Source of the DNA: an uncultured Verrucomicrobiota bacterium
GTDB lineage: Bacteria; Verrucomicrobiota; Kiritimatiellia; CAIQIC01; Lenti-01
DNA length: 64,000 nt
Assembly: GCA_964399775.1 (NCBI GenBank)
Contig: CAYNSH010000001.1
Span: 56,370 to 120,369, forward strand
Direction of reading: 5' to 3'
A program made the translations under genes and the position numbers. The notes beneath the pieces were generated by a model. The model was not told the DNA's origin. It saw nothing but the letters and a program-made list of their open reading frames with translations, and searched no databases. This document shows positions 1 to 64,000 of this stretch, one piece after another. Numbering within the stretch: position 1 is the first letter of the stretch; each line of letters opens with the position of its first letter.

Positions 1-443
1 CCCTGCGCATGCCGCCGGAAGAGGTCGTCCGGATCGATATGGAGGATTCCTGCCGCCGGGCGATGTGGCGCGACAAGATCGAGCAGATGGCTGCGCATCC
101 GGACGACGACCGGCTCTATCCCTGTGCCGCGGGCCTCAACCAATTTCATGCGGATCCGTTTGGTGGGCTTACGCCCTGCCTGATGGCGACCGCCTTCCGC
201 GACGGGGGGGTGGACCGCCCGTTCCGCGAACGCTGGGAGCGCGGATTGGGCGCCATCCGCGAAGCGCGCCGCACGGGCACCGGCGGCAGCTTTGGCGGCG
301 AAATGCGCGGCGCCTGCACGCATTGCCCGGCCTTCAACCGACTGGAAACCGGCAGCGAGGAAATCGAATCGGAGTACATGCAGCGCACCACCCGCCTGCG
401 CTATGAAGCCGCCATGAGCGGTTCGGATGGAGAAGAGACATGA
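1..443 (+). CDS. Radical SAM/SPASM-domain maturase, C-terminal fragment; the gene continues upstream of the window (ORF track 9..443).
   Basis: The translation carries the SPASM/twitch Cys pattern CAAGLNQFHADPFGGLTPC and a downstream GACTHCPAF, as in PqqE/MftC-like peptide maturases. Its TGA stop overlaps the ATG of the next ORF in an ATGA. Confidence 0.6.
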   Translation, partial: LRMPPEEVVRIDMEDSCRRAMWRDKIEQMAAHPDDDRLYPCAAGLNQFHADPFGGLTPCLMATAFRDGGVDRPFRERWERGLGAIREARRTGTGGSFGGEMRGACTHCPAFNRLETGSEEIESEYMQRTTRLRYEAAMSGSDGEET

Positions 444-625
444 TGCCAGAAGCCCTTCAACGCATCCCGGTCGAGTCCGGGCTGGTCGCCCGGCGCCCTT
501 ACGAGAAGCCGCGGATCACCCGCGTGGACCTGGCCCTGGCCGAAACCCTATCGGAAGGCTGCAAACTGGAGACCAATCCGGGCTGCGTGGGACCGCCCAT
601 CACGGCCTACGAGGGAGGTTCGTGA
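440..625 (+). CDS. 61-aa protein, a candidate modified-peptide (RiPP-like) precursor with a C-terminal Ser (…AYEGGS), in an operon with the rSAM and the kinase.
   Basis: Its ATG overlaps the rSAM stop (acATGAtg), with GGAG 9 nt upstream. Its TGA overlaps the GTG start of the kinase (GTGA). The segment KPRITRVDLALAETLSE resembles the PqqA-type leader recognition motif, and the C-terminal Ser matches known substrates of HprK-like kinases in lasso-peptide clusters. Confidence 0.45.
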   Translation: MMPEALQRIPVESGLVARRPYEKPRITRVDLALAETLSEGCKLETNPGCVGPPITAYEGGS

Positions 626-1662
626 CCGGCAACGGTCATCTGGATATCGGTCCGCTGCGGTTCGCGCTGCGGACCGATCGGTCTGCCCCGGTGCGATATG
701 CCGACCCGGCGTATACGGGATTCTTTTCGACCTCCGGGGAGTTCAATATTCAATATTCAATATTCAATATTCAACATTCAAGGGTCGAGGGGTTGGCGCG
801 CTGGCCCAGCGCGCCGGGATGCGAAGACTTCGACATTCGACATTCGACATTCGACATTCAGCCTTCGAGGGAAGCGGTGGCCTGCGCTCCGCCTCCTGTC
901 CATCCCCTTCTCGAATTACCCGTGGCGATCACCGAAGGCGTTGGCGAAATACCTGCCACTCCGCCGCTGTGGCGCGCGGGGAACCACTGGGCGGTCTGGG
1001 ATGATGGGGCGGAACTGGCTTTCCACGTTGGCCTCGAAGCGCCGGAGGCGGTGCGGGCGTCGTGTCGCGTCGCGAAGAATGTATCGCGGGCGGAGCTGAC
1101 GGTGCATCCGTCGGCCTGGAAGGACGGCATCTGCCAATCGCCGTTGAAATATCCCCTGGACCAGATCTTGAGCTGGGGTCTGCTATCGAAAATCGGCGGG
1201 GCGCTCTTGCATGCGGCGGTGGCGGTGAAGGACGGGGTGGGGATCGTTTTCGCCGGCCGCAGCGGCGCGGGCAAATCGACGCTGGCGGGATTGTGCCATG
1301 CGGCGGGCTGGCGGATTTTGAACGACGACCGGGCGGTGGTGTTCCGTCGTGGCGGCGAATGGCGCGTGGCGGGTACGCCGTGGCACGGATCGGGGCGCTT
1401 TGCCGAAGCGGCCGAGGTGCCGCTGGGCGGCGTGTACCTGTTGAAACAGGCGCGGGAAAACCGGATCGAGCCGCTGGCCGCGGCGCAGGCCCGGCTGGCG
1501 TTGCTGGACGTGGCGGCGGTGCCGTGGTTCGCCGAGGAGTGGTCGCAGGGCATGTTGGACGGGCTGGACCGGCTGGTGCGCGAGGCCAAAGCCGCGCAAT
1601 TCCATTTCACGAAAACGGCGGCGGCGGTCGACGCGCTGGCGGGGGAGGCGGCGTGGACGTGA
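622..1662 (+). CDS. HPr-kinase-related P-loop kinase (HprK C-terminal-domain family, 'HprK-related kinase' type). The N-terminal region contains an in-frame 41-codon repeat element (742-861). An alternative start lies after the element, near GTG 922.
   Basis: Contains GIVFAGRSGAGKSTLAGL…NDDRAVV…GTPWHGSG, the HprK-like Walker A and capping motifs. The GTG at 622 follows a GGAGG and overlaps the upstream stop. The ORF-track version starting at 427 is probably an over-extension. Confidence 0.55.
   Translation: MTGNGHLDIGPLRFALRTDRSAPVRYADPAYTGFFSTSGEFNIQYSIFNIQHSRVEGLARWPSAPGCEDFDIRHSTFDIQPSREAVACAPPPVHPLLELPVAITEGVGEIPATPPLWRAGNHWAVWDDGAELAFHVGLEAPEAVRASCRVAKNVSRAELTVHPSAWKDGICQSPLKYPLDQILSWGLLSKIGGALLHAAVAVKDGVGIVFAGRSGAGKSTLAGLCHAAGWRILNDDRAVVFRRGGEWRVAGTPWHGSGRFAEAAEVPLGGVYLLKQARENRIEPLAAAQARLALLDVAAVPWFAEEWSQGMLDGLDRLVREAKAAQFHFTKTAAAVDALAGEAAWT
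742..861 (+). repeat. Composite repeat element, copy 1. It has (ATTCAAT)n, a GC-rich palindrome GGCGCGCTGGCCCAGCGCGCC, and (ATTCGAC)4. It lies in-frame within the kinase ORF.
   Basis: The tandem heptamers and the central palindrome are visible directly. A near-identical element lies at 1668-1796. Confidence 0.8.
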
Positions 1663-1667
1663 AGAGG

Positions 1668-1796
1668 GAATTCAATATTCAATATTCAATAATCCATCTT
1701 CAATCTTCAATGGGATTGCAAGGTAGGGCGCGCTGGCTCAGCGCGCCGGGATCCAAGAACTTCAACATTCGATATTCGATATTCGACATTCGGCGT
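1668..1796 (+). repeat. Composite repeat element, copy 2, with the same architecture as 742-861. It lies 6 nt downstream of the kinase stop and is followed by CACGAAT-type inverted arms (1815-1890).
   Basis: Reads (ATTCAAT)n … GGCGCGCTGGCTCAGCGCGCC … (ATTCGAY)n. Confidence 0.8.
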
Positions 1797-1958
1797 TCTG
1801 CCGAGCCGGGATGTGAACCACGAATGACACCAATGGACACGAATAGAAAGCAGGACAAGTTTTCCCCTTTCGTGGATTTTGCGTCTTTCGTAGTGGAACC
1901 GGCTGCCGGACTTTCATCCGTGGGCCGCCGCAGGCATCCGTGGGGGAACCCTCTTGGT

Positions 1959-2387
1959 TCAGCTCGCCGGGCGCTTCAAGACCGCCCGCGCCCAGCGCCG
2001 CAGCGGACGCGTGGTGTAGCGCAACAAGCCGGCCCAGCGCACGCGGCGGGTGTCCAACGGAACTTCGCGTCCGTTGCGGATCACCGATTCGGCCACGCCG
2101 AGGATGTCGTCGGCCGCAACCCAGTCGCCGCCTTCCAGCGCGGCATCGGCGACGGCGAAGATTCGATGGGCTCGCGTTGGGTTGTGAATCAGGCGGTGGG
2201 CGTTGAGCCGGCCATGGATGCGGTACAAGACGATGGAACCCGGTTTCAGCGATGCGGCGGACACCGGCCGGACGCGCAGAATCTGCCCATCGCGGATGGC
2301 GGGATTCATGCTCGGTCCATGGGCGCGAAAGGTCACCGGCGTTTGCTGGCGCAGGAGCGCTTCAATGACTTGCTGGGAGTCGGGCAT
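1959..2387 (-). CDS. S24/S26-family (signal-peptidase/LexA-like) serine peptidase domain protein.
   Basis: Contains GPSMNPAIRDGQIL…PGSIVLY…GRLNAHRLI, a Ser/Lys-dyad peptidase fold motif. The start is placed at MPDSQQ (codon 114 of ORF 1959..2726) to avoid a 300-bp antisense overlap with the hydrolase gene. A longer N-terminus with a TM-like segment is possible. Confidence 0.5.
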   Translation of the reverse strand: MPDSQQVIEALLRQQTPVTFRAHGPSMNPAIRDGQILRVRPVSAASLKPGSIVLYRIHGRLNAHRLIHNPTRAHRIFAVADAALEGGDWVAADDILGVAESVIRNGREVPLDTRRVRWAGLLRYTTRPLRRWARAVLKRPAS

Positions 2388-2427: not shown

Positions 2428-4308
2428 ATGAACAAGACAAGTCCTGTTTTGAAGAAAGCGGTCGCCGCCGGGCTGGCCGCGCTGGTGTCGATCCCGGTCT
2501 GGGCCGCGCCCCGGACCGGCGAATCGATTGTCGCGGTGCAGACGGGCCGGGCCGAGGCGCGCGTGTTTACCGGCCCGGTGCATGAGGGCCGGACGCAAAA
2601 GCGGAACCTGCACGAGGGGGCATCCGTCGGGGAAACCAGCCAAGTTATGACGGGGCGCGACGGGCGCCTCTGCCTGATCTGCTCGCCCGGGGCCATCTTG
2701 TGCGTGGCACCCAATACCTCGTTCACCTTCGATCAACTTCGGCATACCGCCGACGGGCTGCCGCGCCGCGAAGACGACCTGATTCGCCGCATCCATTTGG
2801 ACCTCCAGCGCGGCCGCATCCGCGTCCAGGCGCCCACGCCGGTGCCCACGCTGGATATCCGCATCACGACACCGGCCGGTCGGATTGAAGCCCAGGGCGG
2901 GGCGTTTGTCGTGGCCCAGGGAAGCGATCGGCGCTGGAACGTCTATTGCGATTCGGACGAATTGACCCTCGTGCCGCGCGATGGCGAGCCCGTTCGCTTG
3001 TCCGCCGGCGATTCCGCGCAGTTCTGGATCAATGAAGACGGCGAAGTGGAAGTGCGCCTGGGCGTTGACGTGGATCCGGATCTGTACCACTTCGAGGTCT
3101 GCAACGCGTTCTTCGAGGATCTGGAGCCGTTCATTGACCAGGAACGCCGCTTCGACCGGGCCGGGTTGGACCGCTACCTGGGCGGCAGCACGCCGATCCA
3201 GGTGCTGGACGACGGAGCGCTGGTCACGGATGTCAGTCCGACCATCCGTCCCTCCGTGGCGGGCCTGACGGTGCCCTCCTTGCCGCCGGGCGGCGGCGAT
3301 GAAGTTGGCGGCCGCTGGGGCGACCAGCGGATCTGGCAGTGGTATGAGCAGATTGGCGTCGTCAAGGGCGTAAACTACATCCCCCGCACCGCGGTCAACT
3401 CCGTCGAGATGTGGCAGCACGACACCTTCGATCCCGAGACCATCGACGAAGAACTCGGCTGGGCCGCCCGCATCGGCTATACGGCCCTCCGCGTCCAGCT
3501 TCAGGTTGCGGTCTGGCAGGACGATTCCAAGGGGTTCCTCGACCGGGTGGACCGGTTCCTCGACCTCGCGGCCAAGCATGGATTGCGAGTCGTTTTGGTG
3601 CTGTTCGACGATCTCGATAGGGCCGGCCAGCCGCCTCAAGTCGGTCCCCAGCCCCCGCCGGTCGAAGGCGAACACAACGCCCGCTGGGTGCCAAGCCCCG
3701 GCGCGGCAGCGGTCAAGGATCGCACCCAATGGGCCGGGCTGGAGCAGTACGTGAAGGACGTGATGGAGAAGTTCAAGCGCGACCGGCGCGTGCTCTACTG
3801 GGACCTCTACAACACGGCCGGCAATGCCGGATTGTGGGAAGATACGCTGCCGCTGCTGGACCAAACCTTCCAGTGGGCGCGCGCGGTCGACCCCTCCCAG
3901 CCCCTGGCCGTGGCGGTCTGGAAGGATTTTGGAAGCGCCATGGCCGCGCGCAAGTTGGAGCGTTCGGACCTGATCACATTCCAGAGCTTCGACAACGTGG
4001 AGAGCATCGAGGCGCGCTTGCTCGCGCTGCAGCGCTATAACCGGCCGATCATCTGCTCGGATTGGCTGATGCGGCAAGTGGGCAACAATTTCGAGAAGGT
4101 GCTGCCGGTGTTCGCCACCTACCGGGTGGGCTGGTTTAACCAGGGGTTGGTCAGCGGCAAAACCCATCGCTTTGTTCAGGACGCGCGCTATCGGGTGGAG
4201 ACCAGCCCCGACGTCTGGCAGCAGGACGTGCTGCAGAAAGATGGAACTCCCTATAGCGAGACGGAAATCGAATTGATCCAGGGATTCCAGTTCCTCGACA
4301 CCCCTTGA
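2428..4308 (+). CDS. Secreted protein with a FecR-like N-terminal domain and a GH5-like (TIM-barrel) glycoside hydrolase domain.
   Basis: Signal peptide MNKTSPVLKKAVAAGLAALVSIPVWAAP. GVNYIPRTAVNSVEMWQ…EELGWAARIGYTALRV are cellulase-family motifs. AAAGG lies upstream of ATG 2428. Confidence 0.6.
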   Translation: MNKTSPVLKKAVAAGLAALVSIPVWAAPRTGESIVAVQTGRAEARVFTGPVHEGRTQKRNLHEGASVGETSQVMTGRDGRLCLICSPGAILCVAPNTSFTFDQLRHTADGLPRREDDLIRRIHLDLQRGRIRVQAPTPVPTLDIRITTPAGRIEAQGGAFVVAQGSDRRWNVYCDSDELTLVPRDGEPVRLSAGDSAQFWINEDGEVEVRLGVDVDPDLYHFEVCNAFFEDLEPFIDQERRFDRAGLDRYLGGSTPIQVLDDGALVTDVSPTIRPSVAGLTVPSLPPGGGDEVGGRWGDQRIWQWYEQIGVVKGVNYIPRTAVNSVEMWQHDTFDPETIDEELGWAARIGYTALRVQLQVAVWQDDSKGFLDRVDRFLDLAAKHGLRVVLVLFDDLDRAGQPPQVGPQPPPVEGEHNARWVPSPGAAAVKDRTQWAGLEQYVKDVMEKFKRDRRVLYWDLYNTAGNAGLWEDTLPLLDQTFQWARAVDPSQPLAVAVWKDFGSAMAARKLERSDLITFQSFDNVESIEARLLALQRYNRPIICSDWLMRQVGNNFEKVLPVFATYRVGWFNQGLVSGKTHRFVQDARYRVETSPDVWQQDVLQKDGTPYSETEIELIQGFQFLDTP

Positions 4309-5606
4309 TGCGACTCTCCGCCTCCATCCGCACCTTGCTGGCGCTGGCCGTCCTGTCGACGCCGTCCATCGGCTTCGCGATCGGCGACAGCTTTTCGGAT
4401 GGGTTCTACACGCGCGGCGTCGAGGCCGCGAGCTACATCGATCAGGGCGGGGCCATCTATGATCCCTTTTACCTCCCGGTCCAGTCGTGGTCGCTCCTGC
4501 CACGCGTGTCCTTGACCGTCACGCACGAGGACAATGTGTTTCTCGAGCCGGAAGATGGCACGGCGAACACATCGGTGGCCCTGGTTCCCGGCCTGTTGGC
4601 GGTCTGGGGCCGGCCGGCGAACAACCACGTCTATGCCGACTACGGCGCCCGCTTCTCGCTGTATGAAAGCGAGGGCGAGGTGAACGACCGTCCCAGCCAC
4701 ATGCTGCGGCTGGGCGCCGTCTATCGCACGGGCAAGAGCCAGATCCAGGCGCAGGCCGGCTTCCGGCATGCGGAGGAAGCCGACGAAGTGCTGGGCGCGC
4801 GCGTGACCAAACGCAATTACAGCCTTGGGCTCGGCGCCGAACACCGGCTCAACGGCAAGAGCAGCCTGGGGCTTCAAGGCAACGTGGAACGCCACGAATA
4901 CGATGCGGAGCGCTACATCGACTACGATCGCATCTATGGCGCCGGACGCTACTACCGCCGCCTGACCCCCAAGAGCCAGGGTTTTGTCCAGGGGGGAATC
5001 GGCCGCGACGAACCGCATCGGTCCGAATATTCCGCCAGCGCCGCGGATTTTTATGACGTGTCGCTGGGGGTGCGCGGCAAGCAGACGCCCAAGATCGGCG
5101 CCGTCGGCCGGGTCGGCTACATGTGGCGGCTCTATGACGATGAGCATCGCGGCGACTACGAAAACTGGGTGGCTTCCTTGCGGGCCAGCAGTTCGCCCTT
5201 CGGTCTGACCACCCTGTCCGCCGAGCTGTATGCCGACATCACTCCGGCGGTCGACGCCGACGGGGTCGATGCGGTCAACCGCGGCTTGACTCTCAAGGCC
5301 AATCGGCGGTTATTCTTTGAACGGCTGCGTGGCAGTGGCTCCTTCACCCTCGGCCAAACGGAATATGTCGGCTTGTCGTCGGGTGCGGATGACGATGCCG
5401 GCACGACCAAGCCTCGCGACGGTCGCACCGACGATTATTGGGGCTTCTCCCTGGGCGTGGATTGGTGGACCAAGAAAAACGTCTCGGTGGGCCTGGCCTA
5501 TTCCTACACGCGCCGGGAGGGCAGCCGGGGCGACGACGCCGAAACACGCCGCGCAACTTCCTACGAATCCGGCCGCTGGACCTTGCGGGTCAGTTGGAAC
5601 TACTAA
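4305..5606 (+). CDS. Outer-membrane beta-barrel protein of the kind associated with polysaccharide export loci.
   Basis: Signal peptide, alternating amphipathic strands, and a C-terminal aromatic end …RVSWNY. ATGA overlap with the upstream gene. Confidence 0.6.
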   Translation: MMRLSASIRTLLALAVLSTPSIGFAIGDSFSDGFYTRGVEAASYIDQGGAIYDPFYLPVQSWSLLPRVSLTVTHEDNVFLEPEDGTANTSVALVPGLLAVWGRPANNHVYADYGARFSLYESEGEVNDRPSHMLRLGAVYRTGKSQIQAQAGFRHAEEADEVLGARVTKRNYSLGLGAEHRLNGKSSLGLQGNVERHEYDAERYIDYDRIYGAGRYYRRLTPKSQGFVQGGIGRDEPHRSEYSASAADFYDVSLGVRGKQTPKIGAVGRVGYMWRLYDDEHRGDYENWVASLRASSSPFGLTTLSAELYADITPAVDADGVDAVNRGLTLKANRRLFFERLRGSGSFTLGQTEYVGLSSGADDDAGTTKPRDGRTDDYWGFSLGVDWWTKKNVSVGLAYSYTRREGSRGDDAETRRATSYESGRWTLRVSWNY

Positions 5607-5651: not shown

Positions 5652-6689
5652 ATGGCCATGAATCCGTTTATGCGAAGAAAAGGCGTGCGCGCCTGGCTGC
5701 TCGGTGCGGCCATCGGGTGGCTGGCGGGCTGCGCCACGCCGGACTTCGGCCCCATGCCGCCAGGCGAGGTGGAGGGTGAGCCGGCGGAGACCCTCGATGC
5801 TTCGCTTCTGTTCCCGGGGGACTACCTCGATTCGCTGTCGAAAGAGGAAGCGGAAGAACCGCTCGGACAGGGCGTCACCCTTCTGCAGGACAAGGACTAT
5901 GTCGCCGCTATTCCCTACCTGGAGCGGGCGCTTCATCGCCAGCCCGAGAATGTACTCATCCTGGAGGCGCTTAGCCTGTGCCTCTATCAAACGGGCCAGC
6001 TGGATCGAATCACCGATCTGTGGGAGCGGCATCTGGAGCAGCAGCCGGACTCCCCAAAAGCCGACGAGTGGCTTGCCCGGGTCCACGAAGCCCGCATCGC
6101 GCCGGCTACCGAGCAAGGCAGGTCGCTGGCCGGGGACGAAGAAATGGCGGAATCCATGCCGCTCGGCGAAGATCCGTATTATTCCGGATATCTGCTCCAG
6201 ACCGGCGACGAGATCGACATCCAGATTTACCGTGAATTGGACCTGTCTGGCCCCTTCCGGATTACGCCCGCGGGCGACATTCGCCATCCGCTGGTGGGCG
6301 CCGTCCCGGTCGCCGGCAAAACCCTCAAGCAGGCGGAAGCCGACTTCACCGCTCTTCTGGCCCGGGATTTCCTCGTCAATCCCCGGGTCATCTTCAAGAT
6401 GCTTTCCACGCAAAGCTCGCAAATCGTCCTCCTGGGCGAGGTGCGCAAGCCCGGTGTGTATCCGCTGCCGGTGGGGGAGCCCATAACTCTGCTGCAGGCG
6501 GTGGCGGGCGCGGGCGGCTTCACCGATCTCGCCAGCCCCGACCGCGTGCGGATCGTTCGCCGTCTGCCGGACGGCCGGACGACCACGATCCGGGTGCGGG
6601 TTTCGCGCCTCCTGTCCGGCCGGGGACGCCAGGAGGACATGACCCTGGAAGCCAACGACGTCATCATGGTGCCGGAAGTGTTGTTTTAA
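5652..6689 (+). CDS. wza: Polysaccharide export lipoprotein, Wza family (Poly_export plus SLBB), with an N-terminal TPR-like segment.
   Basis: Lipobox LAGC. PLVGAVPVAGKTLKQAEADFTALLARDFLVNPRV…VLLGEVRKPGVYPL matches the Wza/GumB family. Confidence 0.75.
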   Translation: MAMNPFMRRKGVRAWLLGAAIGWLAGCATPDFGPMPPGEVEGEPAETLDASLLFPGDYLDSLSKEEAEEPLGQGVTLLQDKDYVAAIPYLERALHRQPENVLILEALSLCLYQTGQLDRITDLWERHLEQQPDSPKADEWLARVHEARIAPATEQGRSLAGDEEMAESMPLGEDPYYSGYLLQTGDEIDIQIYRELDLSGPFRITPAGDIRHPLVGAVPVAGKTLKQAEADFTALLARDFLVNPRVIFKMLSTQSSQIVLLGEVRKPGVYPLPVGEPITLLQAVAGAGGFTDLASPDRVRIVRRLPDGRTTTIRVRVSRLLSGRGRQEDMTLEANDVIMVPEVLF

Positions 6690-6690
6690 C

Positions 6691-8847
6691 ATGCCCGCCT
6701 CCCCCTTCATCGCCACGGAACGCCCCGGCCCCGACGAGCCCGCCAAGTCCTTCGACTGGCGCGAAATGGTGGCCATTGTCATGGAGCGTGCCTGGCTGGG
6801 GGTCGCGGTGTTTGCCGCGGTGTTCCTCTTCTTCACGTTCCAGGCGCGACGCCAGACACCGATTTACCGCAGCACCGCCACCCTGCTGGTGGAAGCGCAG
6901 ATCCCGCGGGTGCTGAACTACCAGGATGTCATGGCCTTCAACCTGCGCAGCCTCGAATATTTCAACACCCACATCAACGCGCTGCACAGCCACACCATGC
7001 TGGAACGGGCGCTCGAGCAAAGCGGACTGGCCGATCATCCGGGATTCTTTCCGGAGATCGAGTCGCGCGCCGGCAAGATCGGCGCGGCCCGCCGGCTGGT
7101 CGCCATTACGCCCATTGAAAAAAGCCGGATGATCCGGATTGTCGTGGAACATCCCGACCCCGCCATCGCCAGCGCCCTGGCCAATGCCATGGCCCGGGCC
7201 TACATCCAGCAGGATCTCGACAACCGCATGGGCACCACGATGGAGGCCGTCGAATGGCTGCGCGCCCGCGCCGAGGAATACCGCGCAAATCTCGAGGCCG
7301 GATTGCTTCAGCTTCAGCAATACCGCGAGGAAACCGGATCGGTCTCGCTCGAGGATGACCAGAATATCGTCATCGAAAAGCTGAAGGCCCTGAACAGCTC
7401 GCTGACGGGCGCGCAAACGGAACGCATTCGGGCCGAAACGGAATGGCAGGCCATTCAATCCCAACTGGCGGATGGGGTCCCGCTGGAGAACATCGTCCCC
7501 CTGCTGGGAGACGGTAGTCTTCAAGAAGCCCTCCGCCGGCTCCAGGAACAGCAGCGCGACGTGGCCCGCCTGCAACAGCGCTATCGCTCACGGCATCCGG
7601 ACTTGGAACAGGCGGTCGAATTGGAACAGAAACTCCAGCACCAGTTCGATCAGGCCGGTAGCAACGCCGTCCATGCCCTCCAAAGCCGGGTGGAGATGTT
7701 GGTGGACCGGGAACGCAACCTTCAGAAGGCGCTTCGGGAGCAGGAACAGGAAGCGTTCGATCTCGACCGGAAATTAGTCCGCTACAACGAACTCAAGCGC
7801 AACGTCGAAGCTGACCAAAGCATCCACCAGGCCGTCATTGCCCGCATGCGCGAAACCAGCATGTCGGAATCGACCCCGTCGGAAATCATCCGCCTGGCCG
7901 AAGAGGCCAGCCCGGGCCGGGTGCCGGTGCGTCCCAACTTGCGGCGGGAAATGATGCGCGGCGCCTCGTTCGGACTGGTGCTCGGGTTTGGCGCCATCTT
8001 CCTGTTCTACTACCTGGACCATCGCTTCCGCCGCAACGAAGAGGTCGAACGGTTGCTGGGCATTCCCGTCGTGGCCACCGTTCCCTTGATTACCGGCAAA
8101 ACGATTGCGGACCGCAGTACCGTGGCGGACCGCAAGCCTTCCGGCGAGGAAGCCGAAAGTTTTCGGACGCTTCGCGCCAGCCTGCTGTTGCGCGACGAGG
8201 TTCGCAAAGCCAAGGTTCTGATGATCACGAGTTCCGGCCCCGGCGACGGCAAGTCGCTGGTGGCCTCCAATCTGGCGATCAGCCTCGCGCAAGATGGTCG
8301 CCGGGTCCTGTTGGTGGGATGCGATCTGAGGCGCCCAATCTTGGATCGGGTATTTTCCGCCCCCTCCGATAAGCCGGGGCTCTCCGAGGTGCTGAAGGGC
8401 CAGGTGTCCTGGCCGGAGGCCTTGCGCCGCCAGGTGTTTATTCATCTCGACCTGCTGTCTTCCGGCTCGATTCCCTCCCACCCGTCGGAACTGCTGGGCA
8501 AACGCGCGTTCGTAGACCTGCTGGCCGAAGCGCGGGAGTTGTATGACCACGTGTTGATCGATGCGCCGCCAGTGCTGGGCGTGAGCGATGCGCTCGTCCT
8601 GCTGCCCAACATGGATGGCGTGTTGTTCATCGTGCGCTACGGCGCCACCCATAGCCTGGGCGCCAAGCATGCCATGGTCAAAATCCAGGCCAGCGGGACG
8701 CCCTGCCTGGGATGCGTCATGAACGGGGTCAATCTCAAATCCCTGGCCAACTACTACTACTATCGCCGCTACGGGGGCTATGCGTACCAACAGTACCAGG
8801 CTCACCCCTCCGCCCTCGGAGAAGCGGACCATCGCACCGAATCATGA
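6691..8847 (+). CDS. wzc: Polysaccharide co-polymerase / BY-kinase (Wzc/EpsB family, PCP-2a).
   Basis: N-terminal TM and Wzz-like domain with coiled coil. Walker A ITSSGPGDGKSLVASNLA, DxD, and a C-terminal Tyr-rich tail YYYYRRYGGYAYQQYQ. Confidence 0.8.
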   Translation: MPASPFIATERPGPDEPAKSFDWREMVAIVMERAWLGVAVFAAVFLFFTFQARRQTPIYRSTATLLVEAQIPRVLNYQDVMAFNLRSLEYFNTHINALHSHTMLERALEQSGLADHPGFFPEIESRAGKIGAARRLVAITPIEKSRMIRIVVEHPDPAIASALANAMARAYIQQDLDNRMGTTMEAVEWLRARAEEYRANLEAGLLQLQQYREETGSVSLEDDQNIVIEKLKALNSSLTGAQTERIRAETEWQAIQSQLADGVPLENIVPLLGDGSLQEALRRLQEQQRDVARLQQRYRSRHPDLEQAVELEQKLQHQFDQAGSNAVHALQSRVEMLVDRERNLQKALREQEQEAFDLDRKLVRYNELKRNVEADQSIHQAVIARMRETSMSESTPSEIIRLAEEASPGRVPVRPNLRREMMRGASFGLVLGFGAIFLFYYLDHRFRRNEEVERLLGIPVVATVPLITGKTIADRSTVADRKPSGEEAESFRTLRASLLLRDEVRKAKVLMITSSGPGDGKSLVASNLAISLAQDGRRVLLVGCDLRRPILDRVFSAPSDKPGLSEVLKGQVSWPEALRRQVFIHLDLLSSGSIPSHPSELLGKRAFVDLLAEARELYDHVLIDAPPVLGVSDALVLLPNMDGVLFIVRYGATHSLGAKHAMVKIQASGTPCLGCVMNGVNLKSLANYYYYRRYGGYAYQQYQAHPSALGEADHRTES

Positions 8848-10193
8848 TGCGCCTGATGTCTTCAGTCCGGTTGCTCTTGCTGCTGGGTTTGATGGGAGCA
8901 TGCGTGGGGCCCCTGCCCATTCCCGATCCCGGGCGTATCTGGGTCGTCCCCATTCTGGCCGTGCTGGCCGGCGCCGGTTTGCTGGTGGATCGCCGTCTGC
9001 CCGCCCGGATCTGGGCCGCCGCCGCCGCCGTTCTCGGGTTGCTGGCGCTGTATGCGGCCAACCCCTCCCACCGCTGGGCCGATGGAATCGGCTTGCTGCC
9101 CATCGACCATTGGACGGTTCTGCCCGCCGCCGCTTTTCGGGCGGGCGCCTGGCAGGTCATGACCTTGGCCACCGGCTTGTTGGCGGCGTATGCCTTGGCC
9201 TTTCGGCTTTCCGCCCGCCAGCGGCAAGCGCTGCTGGTCATCGCGACGGCCGGCGCCGTGGCCATGGCCATCGGGGTTTGGATTCAGCGGCTCGAGCCGC
9301 GTCGCCATCCGATCTATGAGCTGACCGGCGTTTTTGTGAATGAAAACCACTTTGCGGTGTTTGCCAACCTGCTATTGCCCGGGGTGCTGGCGCTGGCTTC
9401 GCGCGCACGGTTTCGGGCGGTTCAGTCGGGTAGCCTGTCGAGCCCGGCGGGACTCTTTTGGTTGTCCGGCGTGCTGCTGGCTGGCGCGGTGGTCCTGAGC
9501 CGGTCCCGGGCCGGCGTGGCTGTGATGGCCCTGCTGGTGTTGCTTCATGTTTGGCGCTGCCGGCGCCTGGTTCGGCAGTTTCCCTTCATGGATACGCCGG
9601 CCGCCGCCCGGTGGCGCGGTCTGGGCTGGTTGGCGGTTGCGGGCGCCGCGGCACTCGCGCTCGCCACCTTGACTCGTGAGTGGCGCTCAACGGGGGATCT
9701 TGTGCGGGAAGGGCATTTCCGCCTCGGCATGGCGAGGGATACCCTCCACATGTGGCGCGACCAGCCGACATGGGGCATCGGCCCGGGATCCTTTACAACG
9801 GTGTTTCCGTACTACCAATCGGACCTGTTTCGCGGCCGAACAATCCTGCATGCGCATTCCGAGCCGGTCCAGACGCTGTCCGAATACGGCTGGGCCGGCG
9901 TGCTCTGGTTGGCTGGCTTCGTGGGGCTGGCCCTGTCGGCCCGTCCTCGCGGCAACCCTCCTTCCGCAAATGGGGCGGCCGAAATCCCCGCCTTTGCCGA
10001 TCTGGAGCGTTCCGCGCTCGCGGCGGGCCTGTTGGCTCTGGTGCTTCACAGTTTAATCGACTTCCCCCTGCGCATCCCGCTGATCACAATGATCGCCGCG
10101 ACCTGGGCCGGCTTGTGGGCCGCCAGCCGCCCGCGGGAGGGCGCAGGCATCCCCGGGGATGCCGAACCGTCAACGGGAGGACCGTCGACATGA
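8844..10193 (+). CDS. O-antigen ligase / Wzy-like polymerase family membrane protein.
   Basis: Multipass membrane protein with the Wzy_C-like loop …LSRSRAGVAVMALLVLL…. The start is at codon 45 of ORF 8712, where ATGA overlaps the wzc stop. Confidence 0.6.
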   Translation: MMRLMSSVRLLLLLGLMGACVGPLPIPDPGRIWVVPILAVLAGAGLLVDRRLPARIWAAAAAVLGLLALYAANPSHRWADGIGLLPIDHWTVLPAAAFRAGAWQVMTLATGLLAAYALAFRLSARQRQALLVIATAGAVAMAIGVWIQRLEPRRHPIYELTGVFVNENHFAVFANLLLPGVLALASRARFRAVQSGSLSSPAGLFWLSGVLLAGAVVLSRSRAGVAVMALLVLLHVWRCRRLVRQFPFMDTPAAARWRGLGWLAVAGAAALALATLTREWRSTGDLVREGHFRLGMARDTLHMWRDQPTWGIGPGSFTTVFPYYQSDLFRGRTILHAHSEPVQTLSEYGWAGVLWLAGFVGLALSARPRGNPPSANGAAEIPAFADLERSALAAGLLALVLHSLIDFPLRIPLITMIAATWAGLWAASRPREGAGIPGDAEPSTGGPST

Positions 10194-12309: not shown

Positions 12310-13331
12310 GCGCGTCGTCAGGCCTCGTTGCCGTCCTCACCACGATCCAGCCGCCCACGCCGGCCGTGCGCGAACTGCATCGACGGCTGGCGGAATCCGG
12401 CGGCCGCCTCGTCGTGGCTGGCGATCAGAAGGGTCCCGCCGCGTTTGATCTGCCCGATTGCGATTTTCTCAGCCTGGCCGACCAGCAATCCAGCGGGTTC
12501 GCTCTGGCGGAAAAGTTGCCGGTGGGCCACTACGCCCGCAAGAACATCGGCTATCTCCATGCCATCCGCGCCGGCGCGGCGTGCCTCTACGAAACCGACG
12601 ACGACAATGCGCCCCTGCCGGGGTGGGCGCCGCGCACCGAAATTGTGGACCATGCCCGGCGCATTTCCGGTTCGGGTTGGGTGAACGCGTATCGCCACTT
12701 CGCCGAGGATCCGCAAATTTGGCCCCGCGGCTTTCCCTTGGAACAACTGAATTCCATCATTCCATCATTCCATCATTCCATCCTCTCAGCCTCTCCTCTC
12801 CGCGCACCCATCCAGCAGGGGTTGGTCAATGGATCGCCCGACGTGGATGCCGTCTGGCGGCTGACGCAGGACCGCCCGTTTGATTTTGACGAAGCCGCGC
12901 CCCTTTGGCTCGGCCCGGGCCAATGGTGCCCGTTCAATACCCAAAGCACGTGGTGGTGGCCCGCCGCCTATCCGCTACTCTATGTGCCGAGCCACTGCTC
13001 CTTTCGCATGTGCGACATCTGGAAAAGCTTCATCGCCCAGCGCTGCCTGTGGGCCATGGGCTGCGGCGTGGTGTTCCATCCGCCCGAGGTGCTTCAGGAC
13101 CGCAACCCCCACGATTATCTCCGCGATTTCCAGGACGAGGTTCCCGGCTACCTCCAAAATGCACGCATCGCCGAGATTCTCTCCGGCCTGGAACTGGCCG
13201 AAGGCGAGGGGGCCGTGGCGGACAATCTCTTGGCCTGCTACCGAGCCTTGATCCAAGAGACTGTTTTTCCCCCCGAAGAATGGACGCTGGTCAAGGCTTG
13301 GGTGCGGGATGGCTTCACCAGATCACCTTGA
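12306..13331 (+). CDS. DUF288/STELLO-like putative glycosyltransferase-family protein. Carries an in-frame (ATTCCATC)4 repeat insertion (12751-12803).
   Basis: HYARKNIGYLHAIRAGAACLYETDDDN…WWWPAAYPLLYVPS. ATGA overlap with wzt. The internal octamer repeat encodes SIIPSFHHSILSASPL. Confidence 0.45.
12751..12803 (+). repeat. (ATTCCATC)4 plus a CT-rich tract, embedded in-frame in the CDS.
   Basis: Direct tandem octamers seen in sequence, from the same ATTC-core family as the intergenic arrays. Confidence 0.8.
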
Positions 13332-28466: not shown

Positions 28467-28633
28467 AAAACCATGACGATCCGGGGACCTGGCAACCACG
28501 AATGGCACGAATGAACACGAATAGAGAACGGATCCGGGGTTTTACCATTCGTGTAGATTCGAGTGATTCGTGGTTGGCTGTCTTGATAGAAATCCAGTAA
28601 CCACGAATAGCACGAATGAACACGAATAGGAGG
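28466..28633. repeat. Left copy of a ~170-bp repeat flanking the GxxExxY gene. It consists of CACGAAT(A/G)-type heptamer arms in inverted orientation around GAGAACGGATCCGGGGTTTTA.
   Basis: About 95% identical to 29046-29215. The internal inverted repeat AACCACGAAT…/…ATTCGTGGTT is seen directly. Confidence 0.8.
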
Positions 28634-29045: not shown

Positions 29046-29255
29046 GAAAACCATGACGATCCGGAGACTTGGCAACCACGAATAGCACGAATGAACAAGA
29101 ATAGAGAACGGATCCGGGGTTTTACCATTCGTGTAGATTCGAGTGATTCGTGGTTGGCTGTCTTGATAGAAATCCAGTAACCACGAATAGCACGAATGAA
29201 CACGAATAGAGAACGGGTCGGAAGCTTAACATTCGTGTATATTCGAGTTATTCGT
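29046..29255. repeat. Right copy of the flanking repeat, with one extra degenerate unit.
   Basis: A direct repeat of 28466-28633. The GTG that opens ORF 29254 lies inside it. Confidence 0.8.
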
Positions 29256-29274
29256 GGTTAAATCAATCCCAGTG

Positions 29275-46540: not shown

Positions 46541-47251
46541 ATGGAAACGGCTGAAAGCCTGCGGGGGAAGGTGGCGCTGGTGACGGCCGGCGCCCGGCGC
46601 ATCGGGGCGTCCATCTGCCGCGAGCTGGCGGCGCGCGGCGCCAGCGTGGTTGTGCATTACCACCACTCCGAGGGCGAGGCGCTCGCGTTGAACCGCTCGC
46701 TGGGTCGCGGCGTGTTTTCGGTGCGCGGCGACCTGTCCACCGCCCAGGGCTGCGAATGGGTCTTCCACGAAGCCGTCGAATGGATGGGGCGGGTGGATAT
46801 TCTGGTCAACAACGCCTCGCTTTTCGCCCGCGACGGCGAAATGGAGCCGCCGGCCCTGCGCGCCATCAACGTCGAGGCTCCCCTGCACCTCGCGGGGAGG
46901 GTGGCCGCGCAACCGTCCGGCGGATGCGTCATCCATCTGCTCGACAGCCGCATCGCCCGCGCGGAACCAGGCGGTTTCTCCGCCTACGCCGCGACCAAGC
47001 GCGAACTGGCCGAGTCGGTGCCGCGCTGCGCCCGCGAATGGGCCCCGCGCGTCCGCGTCAACGGCGTCGCCCCCGGCCCCGTCCTGGCGCCGGAAGGCGT
47101 CCGCGAACCCGCCGGCGACCTCCCCCTCGGGCGGCGACCCGATCCCGAAGACGTCGCCCGCGCCGTCGCGTTTCTTGCCGAAGCCGGCGCCGTTACCGGT
47201 CAAATCCTGTTTGTCGACGGCGGGCAGCATCTGGGGAATAAGCTGGAATGA
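46541..47251 (+). CDS. SDR-family oxidoreductase.
   Basis: GKVALVTAGARRIGASI (TGxxxGxG-like) and NNAS…YAATK are the catalytic YxxxK elements. Confidence 0.75.
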   Translation: METAESLRGKVALVTAGARRIGASICRELAARGASVVVHYHHSEGEALALNRSLGRGVFSVRGDLSTAQGCEWVFHEAVEWMGRVDILVNNASLFARDGEMEPPALRAINVEAPLHLAGRVAAQPSGGCVIHLLDSRIARAEPGGFSAYAATKRELAESVPRCAREWAPRVRVNGVAPGPVLAPEGVREPAGDLPLGRRPDPEDVARAVAFLAEAGAVTGQILFVDGGQHLGNKLE

Positions 47252-47295
47252 TGGAATGTGGGAATGCTGGAATGTGGGAATGATGGAATAATGGA
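47252..47295. repeat. (TGGAATGN)n tandem array, the GGAAT orientation of the ATTCC family.
   Basis: gatggaatgtgggaatgctggaatgtgggaatgatggaataatgg. Confidence 0.75.
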
Positions 47296-47987: not shown

Positions 47988-48112
47988 TTTCCACGGCGTG
48001 GAAAACAGTTTTCCACAGCGTGGAAAAATCCGCGAACAGTTTTCCATGGCGTGGAAAAAAACGGCGAAAGTTTTCCACGGCGTGGAAAACAGTTTTCCAT
48101 AGCGTGGAAAAC
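47988..48112. repeat. Array of five 19-20-bp palindromes TTTTCCAYRGCGTGGAAAAM (cluster A).
   Basis: Five copies with 2-11 nt spacers. Each resembles two inverted DnaA-box-like 9-mers (TTTTCCACA/G). Confidence 0.85.
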
Positions 48113-53709: not shown

Positions 53710-53840
53710 GGTTCCACGCTATGGAAAACAGTTTTCCACAGTATGGAAAAAAGTGGCGCCGGTTTTCCACGGCATGGAAAATCCGTACGCTTTTTTTCCA
53801 CGGCATGGATCCGGCATCTGCCGGACCACAGCATGGAAAA
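53710..53840. repeat. Array of about five TTTTCCACRGYATGGAAAA palindromes (cluster B), partly degenerate.
   Basis: Same family as 47988-48112. Lies between metH and the activation-domain gene. Confidence 0.8.
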
Positions 53841-62537: not shown

Positions 62538-62648
62538 TTCCATCCCAACATTTTACCATTCCACCATTCCACCATTCCACCATTCCAATATCCCAATATT
62601 CCATCATTCCATTCCTCCAGTATTCCCTCTCCCCATCCCCCCCCCCCC
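62538..62648. repeat. (ATTCCAC)4 / ATTCCAT heptamer array ending in a C12 homopolymer that abuts the exonuclease ATG.
   Basis: ccattccaccattccaccattccaccattccaatatcccaatattccatcattccatt…cccatcccccccccccATG. Confidence 0.8.
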
Positions 62649-63614: not shown

Positions 63615-63947
63615 ATGAAGCGAATACACGGGATGCTCTTGACTCTGGCAATCCTTGGCGCCGTCGGCGTGGCCTTCGCGGCGGTCACCTGCGAAACCGT
63701 CAAAATGAACGACCAAACCTGTGGCGCGCAGATGTGGCAGTGCAACCAGTGCGGCGCGGTCGGCTGCGACGATCTTTCGCGGGAATGCCCCGCCCTGCTC
63801 CAGGATCTCCATGCCGCGGAACGCCAGTGCGTCTATTGCGGCAGCAACGACTGGGCACCCCTCGAAGCGCCCGTCCCCGAAGCCCCGGACCCCGCCGAGT
63901 TGAACGGTTTCCATGGCGTGGAAAATTCCCCCCAAAGTTTTCCATAG
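63615..63947 (+). CDS. Small secreted Cys-rich protein. The C-terminal codons and the stop lie inside palindrome array C.
   Basis: Signal peptide MKRIHGMLLTLAILGAVGVAFA. About 10 Cys. AAGGAA upstream. Confidence 0.4.
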   Translation: MKRIHGMLLTLAILGAVGVAFAAVTCETVKMNDQTCGAQMWQCNQCGAVGCDDLSRECPALLQDLHAAERQCVYCGSNDWAPLEAPVPEAPDPAELNGFHGVENSPQSFP

Positions 63948-64000
63948 CGTGGAAAAATGACGAAAAAGTTTTCCATGGCGTGGAAAACTGCCCTTGGATA
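63907..64000. repeat. Array of three or more TTTTCCATRGCGTGGAAAA palindromes (cluster C), truncated by the window end.
   Basis: Same family as clusters A and B. Confidence 0.8.

Follow-up and report, generated by a model that had tools for sequence, protein, structure and literature searches.

What do the genes at the left edge of this stretch of DNA make? The window analyzed here, 64,000 nucleotides (nt) of contig CAYNSH010000001.1 from an uncultured Verrucomicrobiota bacterium, opens at positions 1-2387 on the 3' half of a cassette in which a gene for a radical S-adenosylmethionine (radical-SAM) enzyme, a short open reading frame (ORF) of 61 codons and a gene for an HprK-like protein are followed by a convergent gene for an S24-type peptidase. 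The whole cassette, with genes for a giant C25 peptidase and a PqqD-family protein added at its 5' end, is larger than the window suggested, and far more broadly distributed. It is probable, in our judgment, that it is an operon for the maturation of a ribosomal peptide, in which PqqD would present the precursor, the radical-SAM enzyme would crosslink it, the HprK-like kinase would phosphorylate Ser61 and a peptidase would remove the leader. The evidence consists of the order and coupling of the genes, the selection acting on the peptide, its invariant terminal Ser, the motifs and fold of the putative kinase, and the co-occurrence of five of the genes across phyla.

The three genes at the window's start are chained by overlapping stop and start codons, and both overlaps, which had been put forward in an earlier reading of this DNA (hereafter the original prediction), were confirmed in the sequence. 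The radical-SAM reading frame (1..443, plus strand, frame of 3..443) enters at the left edge in frame 3 and holds the last 146 codons of a 365-residue enzyme, whose start codon and ribosome-binding site lie 5' of the window; its TGA at 441-443 lies within acATGAtg and overlaps the ATG at 440 of the 61-codon ORF. This ORF (440..625, plus strand; ATG 440 to TGA 623-625, MMPEALQRIPVESGLVARRPYEKPRITRVDLALAETLSEGCKLETNPGCVGPPITAYEGGS) encodes the protein MMPEAL...AYEGGS, and its own TGA overlaps a GTG at 622-624 (tcGTGAcc) that is in frame with the long ORF ending at 1662, that of the HprK-like protein (622..1662, plus strand, 346 residues). The GGAG-type sites expected 5' of the peptide and kinase genes were found as GGAG at 429-432, 7 nt 5' of the peptide ATG, and as GAGGGAGG at 611-618, 5' of the GTG start. 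The NTGA overlap of the peptide and kinase genes is kept in most homologous loci, and since it recurs there and the peptide is conserved as a protein, the coupling goes beyond chance. A consensus-based scan of positions 1-2600 revealed no promoter or terminator, and no canonical terminator in the 1670-1792 region.

The upstream genes were read from ten contigs of the same organism, retrieved by an exact look-up of the peptide sequence, and the full radical-SAM gene is present on four of them (L001-L004). Their gene order is pqqD, the radical-SAM gene, the 61-codon ORF and the gene of the HprK-like protein, which belongs to the ScmC family. The pqqD gene encodes 97 residues that match Pfam PF05402 with 53.3 bits (cut-off 23.4), and on contig L002 it overlaps the radical-SAM gene by ATGA, so that four genes (pqqD, radical-SAM, peptide and kinase) are chained by 4-nt overlaps. 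A PqqD partner providing the recognition element (RRE) of peptides made on the ribosome and modified after translation (RiPPs) had been anticipated upstream, and it is encoded directly 5' of the radical-SAM gene; the transporter also suggested there is absent, and the place 5' of pqqD is taken by the gene of a 1259-residue protein that combines a Peptidase_C25 domain (214 bits) with SdrD_B repeats. The locus thus has what defines an RRE-dependent RiPP pathway, namely a PqqD-family gene that stands beside those of the modifying enzyme and of a short precursor whose leader is conserved. The 220-nt spacer between the C25 gene and pqqD contains five copies of the palindrome TTTCCACRGCGTGGAAA (L002 3860-3990). 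This imperfect palindrome also forms tandem arrays of 2-5 copies, spaced by 22-31 nt, at 47988-48110, 53733-53780 and 63908-63986 of the window (ten matches, with zero expected), and the arrays may represent an operator or an element resembling repetitive extragenic palindromes (REP).

Is the 61-residue peptide a genuine gene product? A search over 5.8 billion proteins returned 39 clusters of 51-63 residues, whose alignment shows a variable N-terminus of ~16 residues, then a near-invariant R-x-x-Y-x-x-P-x-x-x-R-V-D-L-A-L-A-E-T-L-S-x-G-C-K and, C-terminal to the C-K block, another Cys, G-P-P and, at the very end, G-S. The window peptide accordingly divides into a variable N-terminus, the conserved leader RRPYEKPxIxRVDLALAETLSxG and the core C41-K42...C49...G60-S61-stop. 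In a codon alignment of the gene from 24 loci, the ratio of nonsynonymous to synonymous differences (pN/pS) was lowest for the leader (0.25), higher for the core (0.38) and highest for the N-terminal tail (0.75), with synonymous differences near saturation (pS 0.65-0.69). The terminal Ser is encoded by TCG, TCT, TCA or TCC and the preceding Gly by all four of its codons. As the invariant residues are encoded by several synonymous codons, selection acts on the peptide as a protein and not on an overlapping signal. We therefore take the 61-codon ORF, from these alignments, to be a real gene under purifying selection in homologous loci, as had been predicted, and a chance ORF is ruled out by the conservation and by pN/pS. 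The proposal that E-G-G-S is kept merely as the Shine-Dalgarno site or start of the kinase gene is likewise ruled out, by the synonymous codons and by the peptides of a second gene order, described below, that also end in Ser.

In each of the ~60 distinct peptides, Cys-Lys or Cys-Gly-Lys is found together with a second Cys, and the chain ends in Ser. The most divergent ones of the Kiritimatiellia clade keep the leader and differ in their cores (CKLDGECNMPPINIRDEVGS, CKMTEPCPIEEPGFFEPGS, CKVSGDGGECDPDPGFADPTSELGS and CKLAGVCDDPFEPISEAGS), with C-K, the second Cys and G-S-stop in every case; apart from this handful of invariant residues, the core varies freely. The resemblance to the PqqA scaffold that had been noted proved statistically undetectable, neither the window peptide nor any of the 39 relatives matching a Pfam or NCBIfam model at E<=10. 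An extra 51-residue copy of the peptide was found between two giant C25 genes (L013 8001-8156), where PqqD, radical-SAM and ScmC genes are absent within 8 kb; a ScmC homologue (P0099) is on record from a contig of equal length. An intact precursor gene at L069 1166-1321, in the Chloroflexi metagenome-assembled genome (MAG) GCA_001795115.1, is missing from the called genes, and peptides of this kind are probably annotated too rarely in public genomes.

The distribution of the cassette was analyzed at two depths. In a GTDB scan with one genome per species, the peptide occurred in 17 MAGs labelled Kiritimatiellia/Kiritimatiellae or 'Verrucomicrobia', and it was present in every related Kiritimatiellia locus examined. 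Mapping by tblastn, together with further contexts at 43-49% kinase identity, showed a fixed order in 20 of the 21 Kiritimatiellia loci (the exception being L013): giant C25, PqqD, radical-SAM, peptide, ScmC, S24 on the opposite strand, FecR/GH5-like, BBP2, Wza, Wzc-like, Wzy_C and an ABC2/Wzt transporter. As synteny inside a single clade may reflect no more than common descent, more distant relatives were sought as well. When a ScmC-like profile of 76 proteins was run on 1.84 billion cluster representatives, 15 close representatives were separated by a gap from a huge second tier of full-length relatives of ~300 residues (743 representatives at E<=1e-30 and 6,691 at E<=1e-10), whose named sources are Nitrospirota, Planctomycetota, Chloroflexi, Deltaproteobacteria, Verrucomicrobia and CSSED10-310 MAGs. 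Second-tier loci from Nitrospirota, Planctomycetota and Chloroflexi MAGs carry C25, PqqD, radical-SAM, an ORF of 56-59 residues, ScmC and an S24-like gene, all co-oriented, and a homologous peptide is present in soil metagenomes too. Outside Kiritimatiellia the homologous peptides read ...VYEKPMLRVIELTADEVLAIGCKTSQSGAAPIKPPPCMAHRCSKAGS, ...AYSRPRVRVIELAAEEVLAKGCKTFASTAPGQFSPPCWLTMCADQGS, ...VYEKPRLRVIELVAEEVMGVGCKTLSSVGPLTVCNVLNCFNTGS, ...PYEKPRLTTIELAAEEVLGVGCKLELGATAFGVSPCPSNNCMLAGS (uncalled by annotators) and ...PYEKPRLRIIELAAEEILAVGCKTSLRDPSGKLASGCTNPLCSIATGS. The C25 gene and pqqD point the same way in Kiritimatiellia, Nitrospirota, Planctomycetota and other loci, and in many cases they overlap or adjoin each other.

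A metagenome scan uncovered a second arrangement, here type 2, with a kinase ~30-35% identical and the order (S24), ScmC, PqqD, radical-SAM, peptide, (S24). Its peptides, such as ...KKPYTKPSVASEPIYETLALACGKLPGQGGVCNAAPRRS, ...KKPYQKPEFRFERVFETRALTCGKVNPTQSSCTHNRKHS and ...RRPYEPPKIQSETIFETTALACGKRPGQQFTCMTRPQNS, keep P-Y-x-K-P, E-T, C-G-K, the second Cys and the terminal Ser. The type-2 peptide gene has no kinase gene downstream, and the terminal Ser is therefore not a by-product of an overlapping start or Shine-Dalgarno site. The strongest evidence that the peptide, PqqD, the radical-SAM enzyme, ScmC and the S24-type peptidase belong together functionally comes from this shuffling, in which the order changes and the five partners stay the same. 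The original prediction had raised the question of whether the kinase might be accompanied by some other small substrate gene in homologous clusters; in both gene orders and across phyla, its partner was always a homologous Ser-ending peptide. The C25 gene belongs to the first arrangement (type 1) only, type-2 loci having none in the available flanks. In one type-2 locus (L046), a gene for a protein with a legume-lectin domain follows the cassette.

The protein encoded at 622..1662 is HprK-like, as had been claimed, and has two domains. In a family profile search it matched the L. casei HprK/P (1jb1, 2qmh) with E 1e-5, G-x-G-x-x-x-x-G-x-S-G-x-G-K-S...G-x-R-x-x-x-D-D-R being matched throughout the alignment. 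H197, S214, G215, G217, K218, T220, D235, D236, R237 and G-T-P-W-H-G are invariant in 76 kinase sequences, and the motifs of the window protein are His197, the P-loop at 212-220, D235-D236 and GTPWHG at 251-256. The AlphaFold2 model is confident (predicted local distance difference test score, pLDDT, 87; predicted template modelling score, pTM, 0.83) except at residues 42-80 (pLDDT <50) and has the HprK/PEPCK fold, so that the catalytic core of the HprK superfamily is present with its His, Walker A GxSGxGKS/T and Asp-Asp. A precomputed match to Pfam PF27840 covers the window kinase (P0040) and 120 of the 120 listed relatives. The NCBIfam matches extend over the nucleotide-binding core alone and fall far under the cut-offs of HprK-related kinase A (TIGR04352, 42.1 bits against 200), HprK-related kinase B (TIGR04355, 26.6 against 200) and ScmC (41.7 against 125); second-tier relatives score 27-42 bits against the HprK-related A/B models, and no NCBIfam cut-off is reached. 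In lasso-peptide clusters, the characterized HprK homologues act on the linear precursor by phosphorylating its C-terminal Ser, and they ask little else of the substrate (PMC8498205). By analogy, an invariant terminal Ser beside an HprK-like protein, in two gene orders and several phyla, would be expected from this specificity, the enzyme being only a distant relative of these kinases.

The window kinase is longer (346 residues) than its homologues elsewhere (295-305), and an element of ~129 nt lies in-frame within its gene at 742..859 (plus strand). It consists of (TTCAATA)x5, the 21-nt GC hairpin GGCGCGCTGGCCCAGCGCGCC at 795-815 and (TTCGACA)x4, and is translated into an insert of 43 residues in a predicted disordered loop (residues ~42-80). 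A second copy of the same element occupies the convergent intergenic region just past the kinase stop (1670..1792, plus strand). At the insertion site, homologous kinases are without the element or have related or other inserts. The idea that the N-terminal part of the gene (622 to ~870) is non-coding was discarded, as the homologues share the start codon position and the N-terminal domain, the repeat being an in-frame loop insert. In other species the same loop (alignment columns 54-115, residues ~40-85) carries unrelated inserts, among them 'GRTVPVSRD...' in P0044, P0046 and P0088, which seems to resemble a translated GC-rich repeat, as if the loop were an insertion hot spot. Eight same-organism contigs span the element, seven with 5+4 heptamers and one with 5+3 (L005 1923-2048); the latter is short of one TTCGACA unit, which shifts the frame, and the gene caller places its kinase start 85 codons later. 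Three further contigs break off inside the element. The change in repeat length could be phase variation or a rare variant. Other short tandem repeats of 7-10 nt, AT-richer and with an ATTC/GAAT core (ATTCCATC, CACGAATAG, TGGAATGA and CCATTCCA), are scattered through the GC-rich window at 12751-12782, 28497-28629, 29077-29260, 47244-47295 and 62540-62626, the first of these, at least, apparently inside an ORF.

The radical-SAM enzyme was examined in its full length (gene of L002). It matches PF04055 with 80 bits, and its CX3CX2C motif (C38/C42/C45), which places it in the superfamily, is invariant in 24 homologues. Four further Cys, all in its C-terminal part, are invariant as well: C260, C278, C324 and C327, or C-x17-C ... 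C-x2-C. The original prediction had called it a SPASM enzyme, a description that had to be narrowed: there is no SPASM Pfam match, and of the seven-Cys motif CX9-15GX4C...CX2CX5CX3C...C, which binds two auxiliary clusters, the CX5CX3C segment and the final Cys are missing. We take the four-Cys pattern to be that of Twitch-domain enzymes such as BtrN and SkfB, which suggests a Twitch-like C-terminal domain with one auxiliary cluster. Type-2 relatives (L046, L058) have a fuller SPASM pattern, CxxCx5Cx2C, which the C25-linked type has lost. The closest solved structures are PqqE (6c8v) and SkfB (6efn), and the top NCBIfam alignments are to AhbD, TIGR04053, MftC (the longest) and PqqE, each far under its cut-off (MftC 99 against 265 bits, PqqE 88 against 381). 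Of these relatives, PqqE, SkfB and MftC act on peptides. The most economical guess from this analysis is that the enzyme makes thioethers with the 2-3 invariant Cys of the core.

The S24/S26 peptidase noted near the cassette is encoded at 1959..2387 on the minus strand (142 residues) and scores 26.1 bits against PF00717 (gathering score 23.3). It is soluble, having no hydrophobic segment, and G-x-S-M-x-P (Ser26), H-R (H64-R65) and D-A-A (from D80) are invariant in 21 homologues. Its likeness to the sigpep_I_arch model is weak (E 4e-5; a type-2 homologue scores 46.4 against 51.85 bits), as is its alignment with SEC11A. Judged by its motifs, it resembles signal peptidase I of the endoplasmic reticulum and archaeal type, in which His replaces Lys in a Ser/His arrangement. 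The gene accompanies the cassette in both gene orders and outside Kiritimatiellia too. One type-1 locus has a Transglut_core3 protein in its stead (70.7 bits; L059 8932-9357, minus strand), Transglut_core3 being the family of lasso B2 leader peptidases, and this exchange argues for a leader-peptidase role, for which the S24-like protein is our candidate. In front of the invariant Cys, type-2 peptides have A-L-A and type-1 peptides [A/S]-x-G, residues that would fit the -3/-1 rule of signal peptidases.

We infer from these features a pathway of four steps. PqqD, through its RRE function, would bind the leader YEKPxIxRVDLALAETL and hand the peptide to the enzymes. The radical-SAM enzyme, presumably holding a single auxiliary Fe-S cluster, would place one or more crosslinks in the core, most probably through thioethers from C41 and C49, and the ScmC-family HprK-like protein would use ATP, or pyrophosphate (PPi), to phosphorylate the hydroxyl of Ser61. 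The S24/S26-type Ser/His peptidase would finally cut off the leader, plausibly just before Cys41. The crosslinks, the phosphate and the cleavage site are thus predicted, and the same holds for any role assigned to the C25 protease or to the neighboring polysaccharide genes.

Several observations weigh against this pathway. The kinase, the radical-SAM enzyme and PqqD are all far under the curated cut-offs of each named NCBIfam family, and their function is therefore transferred at the superfamily level only. The conserved core has neither an exporter nor an immunity gene, contrary to what is usual for secreted RiPPs, and the tight linkage to a giant C25 peptidase is unexplained by a simple RiPP model. 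The 43-residue insert in this organism's kinase and the one frameshifted population variant imply that the kinase may be dispensable. In addition, the invariant leader Glu is directly preceded by Asp in 2 of the 24 peptides of the Kiritimatiellia clade, locus L044 has Phe at the proposed -1 position, and in loci L038 and L041 the gene directly following ScmC is not a peptidase gene.

The cassette may also serve a cell-surface system of a kind not recognized before, with the crosslinked phospho-peptide, of ~20 residues, as its peptide component. The co-transcribed C25 protease, which is PorU/gingipain-like, would then receive the peptide and might cleave after the invariant Lys, or might couple the peptide in a sortase-like manner to the envelope or to the Wza/Wzc/Wzy polysaccharide, with a structural or priming role and not that of an antibiotic. 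The constant C25 linkage and the polysaccharide export locus of Kiritimatiellia do suggest a role at the cell surface and not in antibiosis, which would be a new use of a RiPP. Polysaccharide genes follow the module in one of five non-Kiritimatiellia loci (L037) and are absent beside it in L035, L036, L069 and L070, which rules them out as obligatory members. In this specific form, we regard the envelope proposal as unlikely.

A ribosomal peptide need not itself be the product. It could be a sacrificial scaffold for a cofactor or metabolite, in the style of pyrroloquinoline quinone (PQQ) or mycofactocin, with the radical-SAM enzyme and the kinase modifying Cys-Lys or the terminal Gly-Ser, S24 and C25 excising the fragment and glycosyltransferases perhaps decorating it. 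MftC and PqqE are the closest full-length matches of the radical-SAM enzyme, the layout of PqqD, radical-SAM enzyme and peptidase mirrors that of MftB/MftC/MftE, and a freely varying core with few invariant residues, a core module without an exporter and an adjoining polysaccharide/glycosyltransferase locus in Kiritimatiellia all agree with it. However, both scores are far under family level, homologues of PqqB/C and MftD/E/F were not seen in the loci, a leader followed by a variable core with 2-3 Cys is found more typically in crosslinked RiPPs, and in other phyla the module is without the polysaccharide genes. Such a scaffold thus appears quite unlikely.

The phosphate, too, could be an intermediate: the HprK-like protein might phosphorylate Ser/Thr for elimination, leading either to a dehydro-amino acid and its reaction with Cys (lanthionine-like) or to dehydroalanine at the C-terminus, which would decay to a C-terminal amide, with no phosphate in the product. 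Phosphorylation followed by elimination is the established route of class III/IV lanthipeptide synthetases, and the peptides do have invariant Cys residues and an invariant Thr/Ser (E-T-L-S) near the core. This Ser is, however, Gly or Ala in some Kiritimatiellia-clade peptides, and E-T-L-S becomes E-E-V-L/D-E-V-L outside Kiritimatiellia, while the rearranged set has Y/F-E-T/S-x-x-L in its place. Of the hydroxyl residues, the terminal Ser alone is conserved throughout, in line with the specificity characterized for the lasso HprK-type kinases, and no lyase or cyclase domain was present in the loci examined, making elimination very unlikely. It is highly improbable that the enzymes act mainly on the giant C25 protein or a surface polysaccharide with the peptide as an accessory (a protease inhibitor/chaperone or a regulator), as the C25 gene's co-orientation with pqqD and the extra peptide copy between two C25 genes in L013 might suggest, because type-2 loci keep peptide, ScmC, PqqD, radical-SAM and S24 genes without C25 in the available flanks, and PqqD-family proteins bind peptide leaders, a conserved leader being what such a chaperone would recognize.

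If a crosslinked peptide phosphorylated at its C-terminus is indeed the product, the cassette would represent a large, multi-phylum class of uncharacterized ribosomal peptides, and would combine radical-SAM crosslinking with C-terminal Ser phosphorylation in one class. To our knowledge, such phosphorylation has so far been known only as a tailoring of lasso peptides. It would also provide a first function for the Pfam family PF27840.

Downstream of the S24-type gene, the window continues on the plus strand with facultative neighbors outside the core module, encoding a secreted FecR/GH5-like protein (2428-4308), a BBP2 beta-barrel (4305-5606), a Wza-type exporter (5652-6689), a Wzc-like protein (6691-8847) and a Wzy_C protein (8712-10193). 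The first of these has 626 residues, with a FecR-like N-terminal domain and a weak GH5 cellulase-like region; its gene lies beside the S24 gene in all Kiritimatiellia loci and is missing there in other phyla. Genes for glycosyltransferases and methyltransferases are also present in the window.

How does the cassette compare with known systems? Based on family-model scores and gene content, one of the closest is SynChlorMet (ScmC, ScmD, ScmE/ScmF; TIGR04248-04251), with which it shares a PqqD-family chaperone, a radical-SAM enzyme of the SPASM lineage and an HprK-related protein of ~300 residues side by side, the window protein matching TIGR04249 over the nucleotide-binding core. All of the cut-offs are missed (ScmC 41.7/125, ScmD 23.5/100, ScmF 82.2/400, ScmE 66.5/400), and the cassette differs in having one radical-SAM enzyme and not two, a truncated SPASM domain, and attached S24 and C25 peptidases. 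The three corresponding proteins of GeoRSP and HprK-related kinase B (TIGR04302/04303/04355), families that we take to co-occur as one system, are also only weakly matched (PqqD 23/100, radical-SAM/SPASM 79/400, kinase 27/200). A literature search on SynChlorMet, GeoRSP, HPr kinase with radical SAM and PqqD, Kiritimatiellia radical SAM with exopolysaccharide (EPS), and C25 with radical SAM and PqqD found nothing relevant.

The clusters of lasso HprK-type kinases (paeninodin PadeK, ThcoK and pseudomycoidin PsmK), which are probably the NCBIfam HprK-related kinase A, likewise place an HprK-like P-loop kinase by a PqqD/RRE and a precursor ending in Ser, and locus L059 even has a lasso-B2-type Transglut_core3 protease. 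Their precursors share only the C-terminal Ser with ours, which have a long conserved leader and invariant Cys residues; a radical-SAM enzyme replaces the Asn-synthetase-homologue cyclase, no gene for which was found among the called genes within up to 8-10 kb of any locus, where the contig allowed, and the TIGR04352 score is that given above. Sactipeptides (SkfA/SkfB), ranthipeptides and the PqqE/MftC pathways share the PqqD/RRE, an auxiliary-cluster radical-SAM enzyme and a short Cys-containing peptide; here all of the family cut-offs are missed, and the C-terminal Ser and Cys-Lys are invariant. We know of no kinase in sactipeptide, ranthipeptide, PQQ or mycofactocin pathways. Compared with mycofactocin, the peptide ends in Gly-Gly-Ser whereas MftA ends in Gly-Val-Tyr, and compared with the PQQ pathway, no PqqA family match exists. 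Membership in the SynChlorMet, GeoRSP, HprK-related A/B, PQQ, mycofactocin and lasso systems was thus rejected in each case, for failed cut-offs or missing defining genes.

At the level of sequence analysis, the reading offered by the original prediction is supported. It knew of no described system combining a radical-SAM/SPASM enzyme with a Ser kinase. This must be qualified, PqqD, radical-SAM and HprK-like proteins together having already been catalogued in silico (SynChlorMet, GeoRSP, PF27840), although the family reaches no curated NCBIfam cut-off. The class is thus catalogued in outline and uncharacterized, its peptide family being without a model. In terms of its sequence, it is best described as an RRE-dependent radical-SAM cassette of RiPP-like type, with a recruited HprK-type kinase and a signal-peptidase-like protease, and with the peptide core Cys-Lys...Cys...Ser-COOH.

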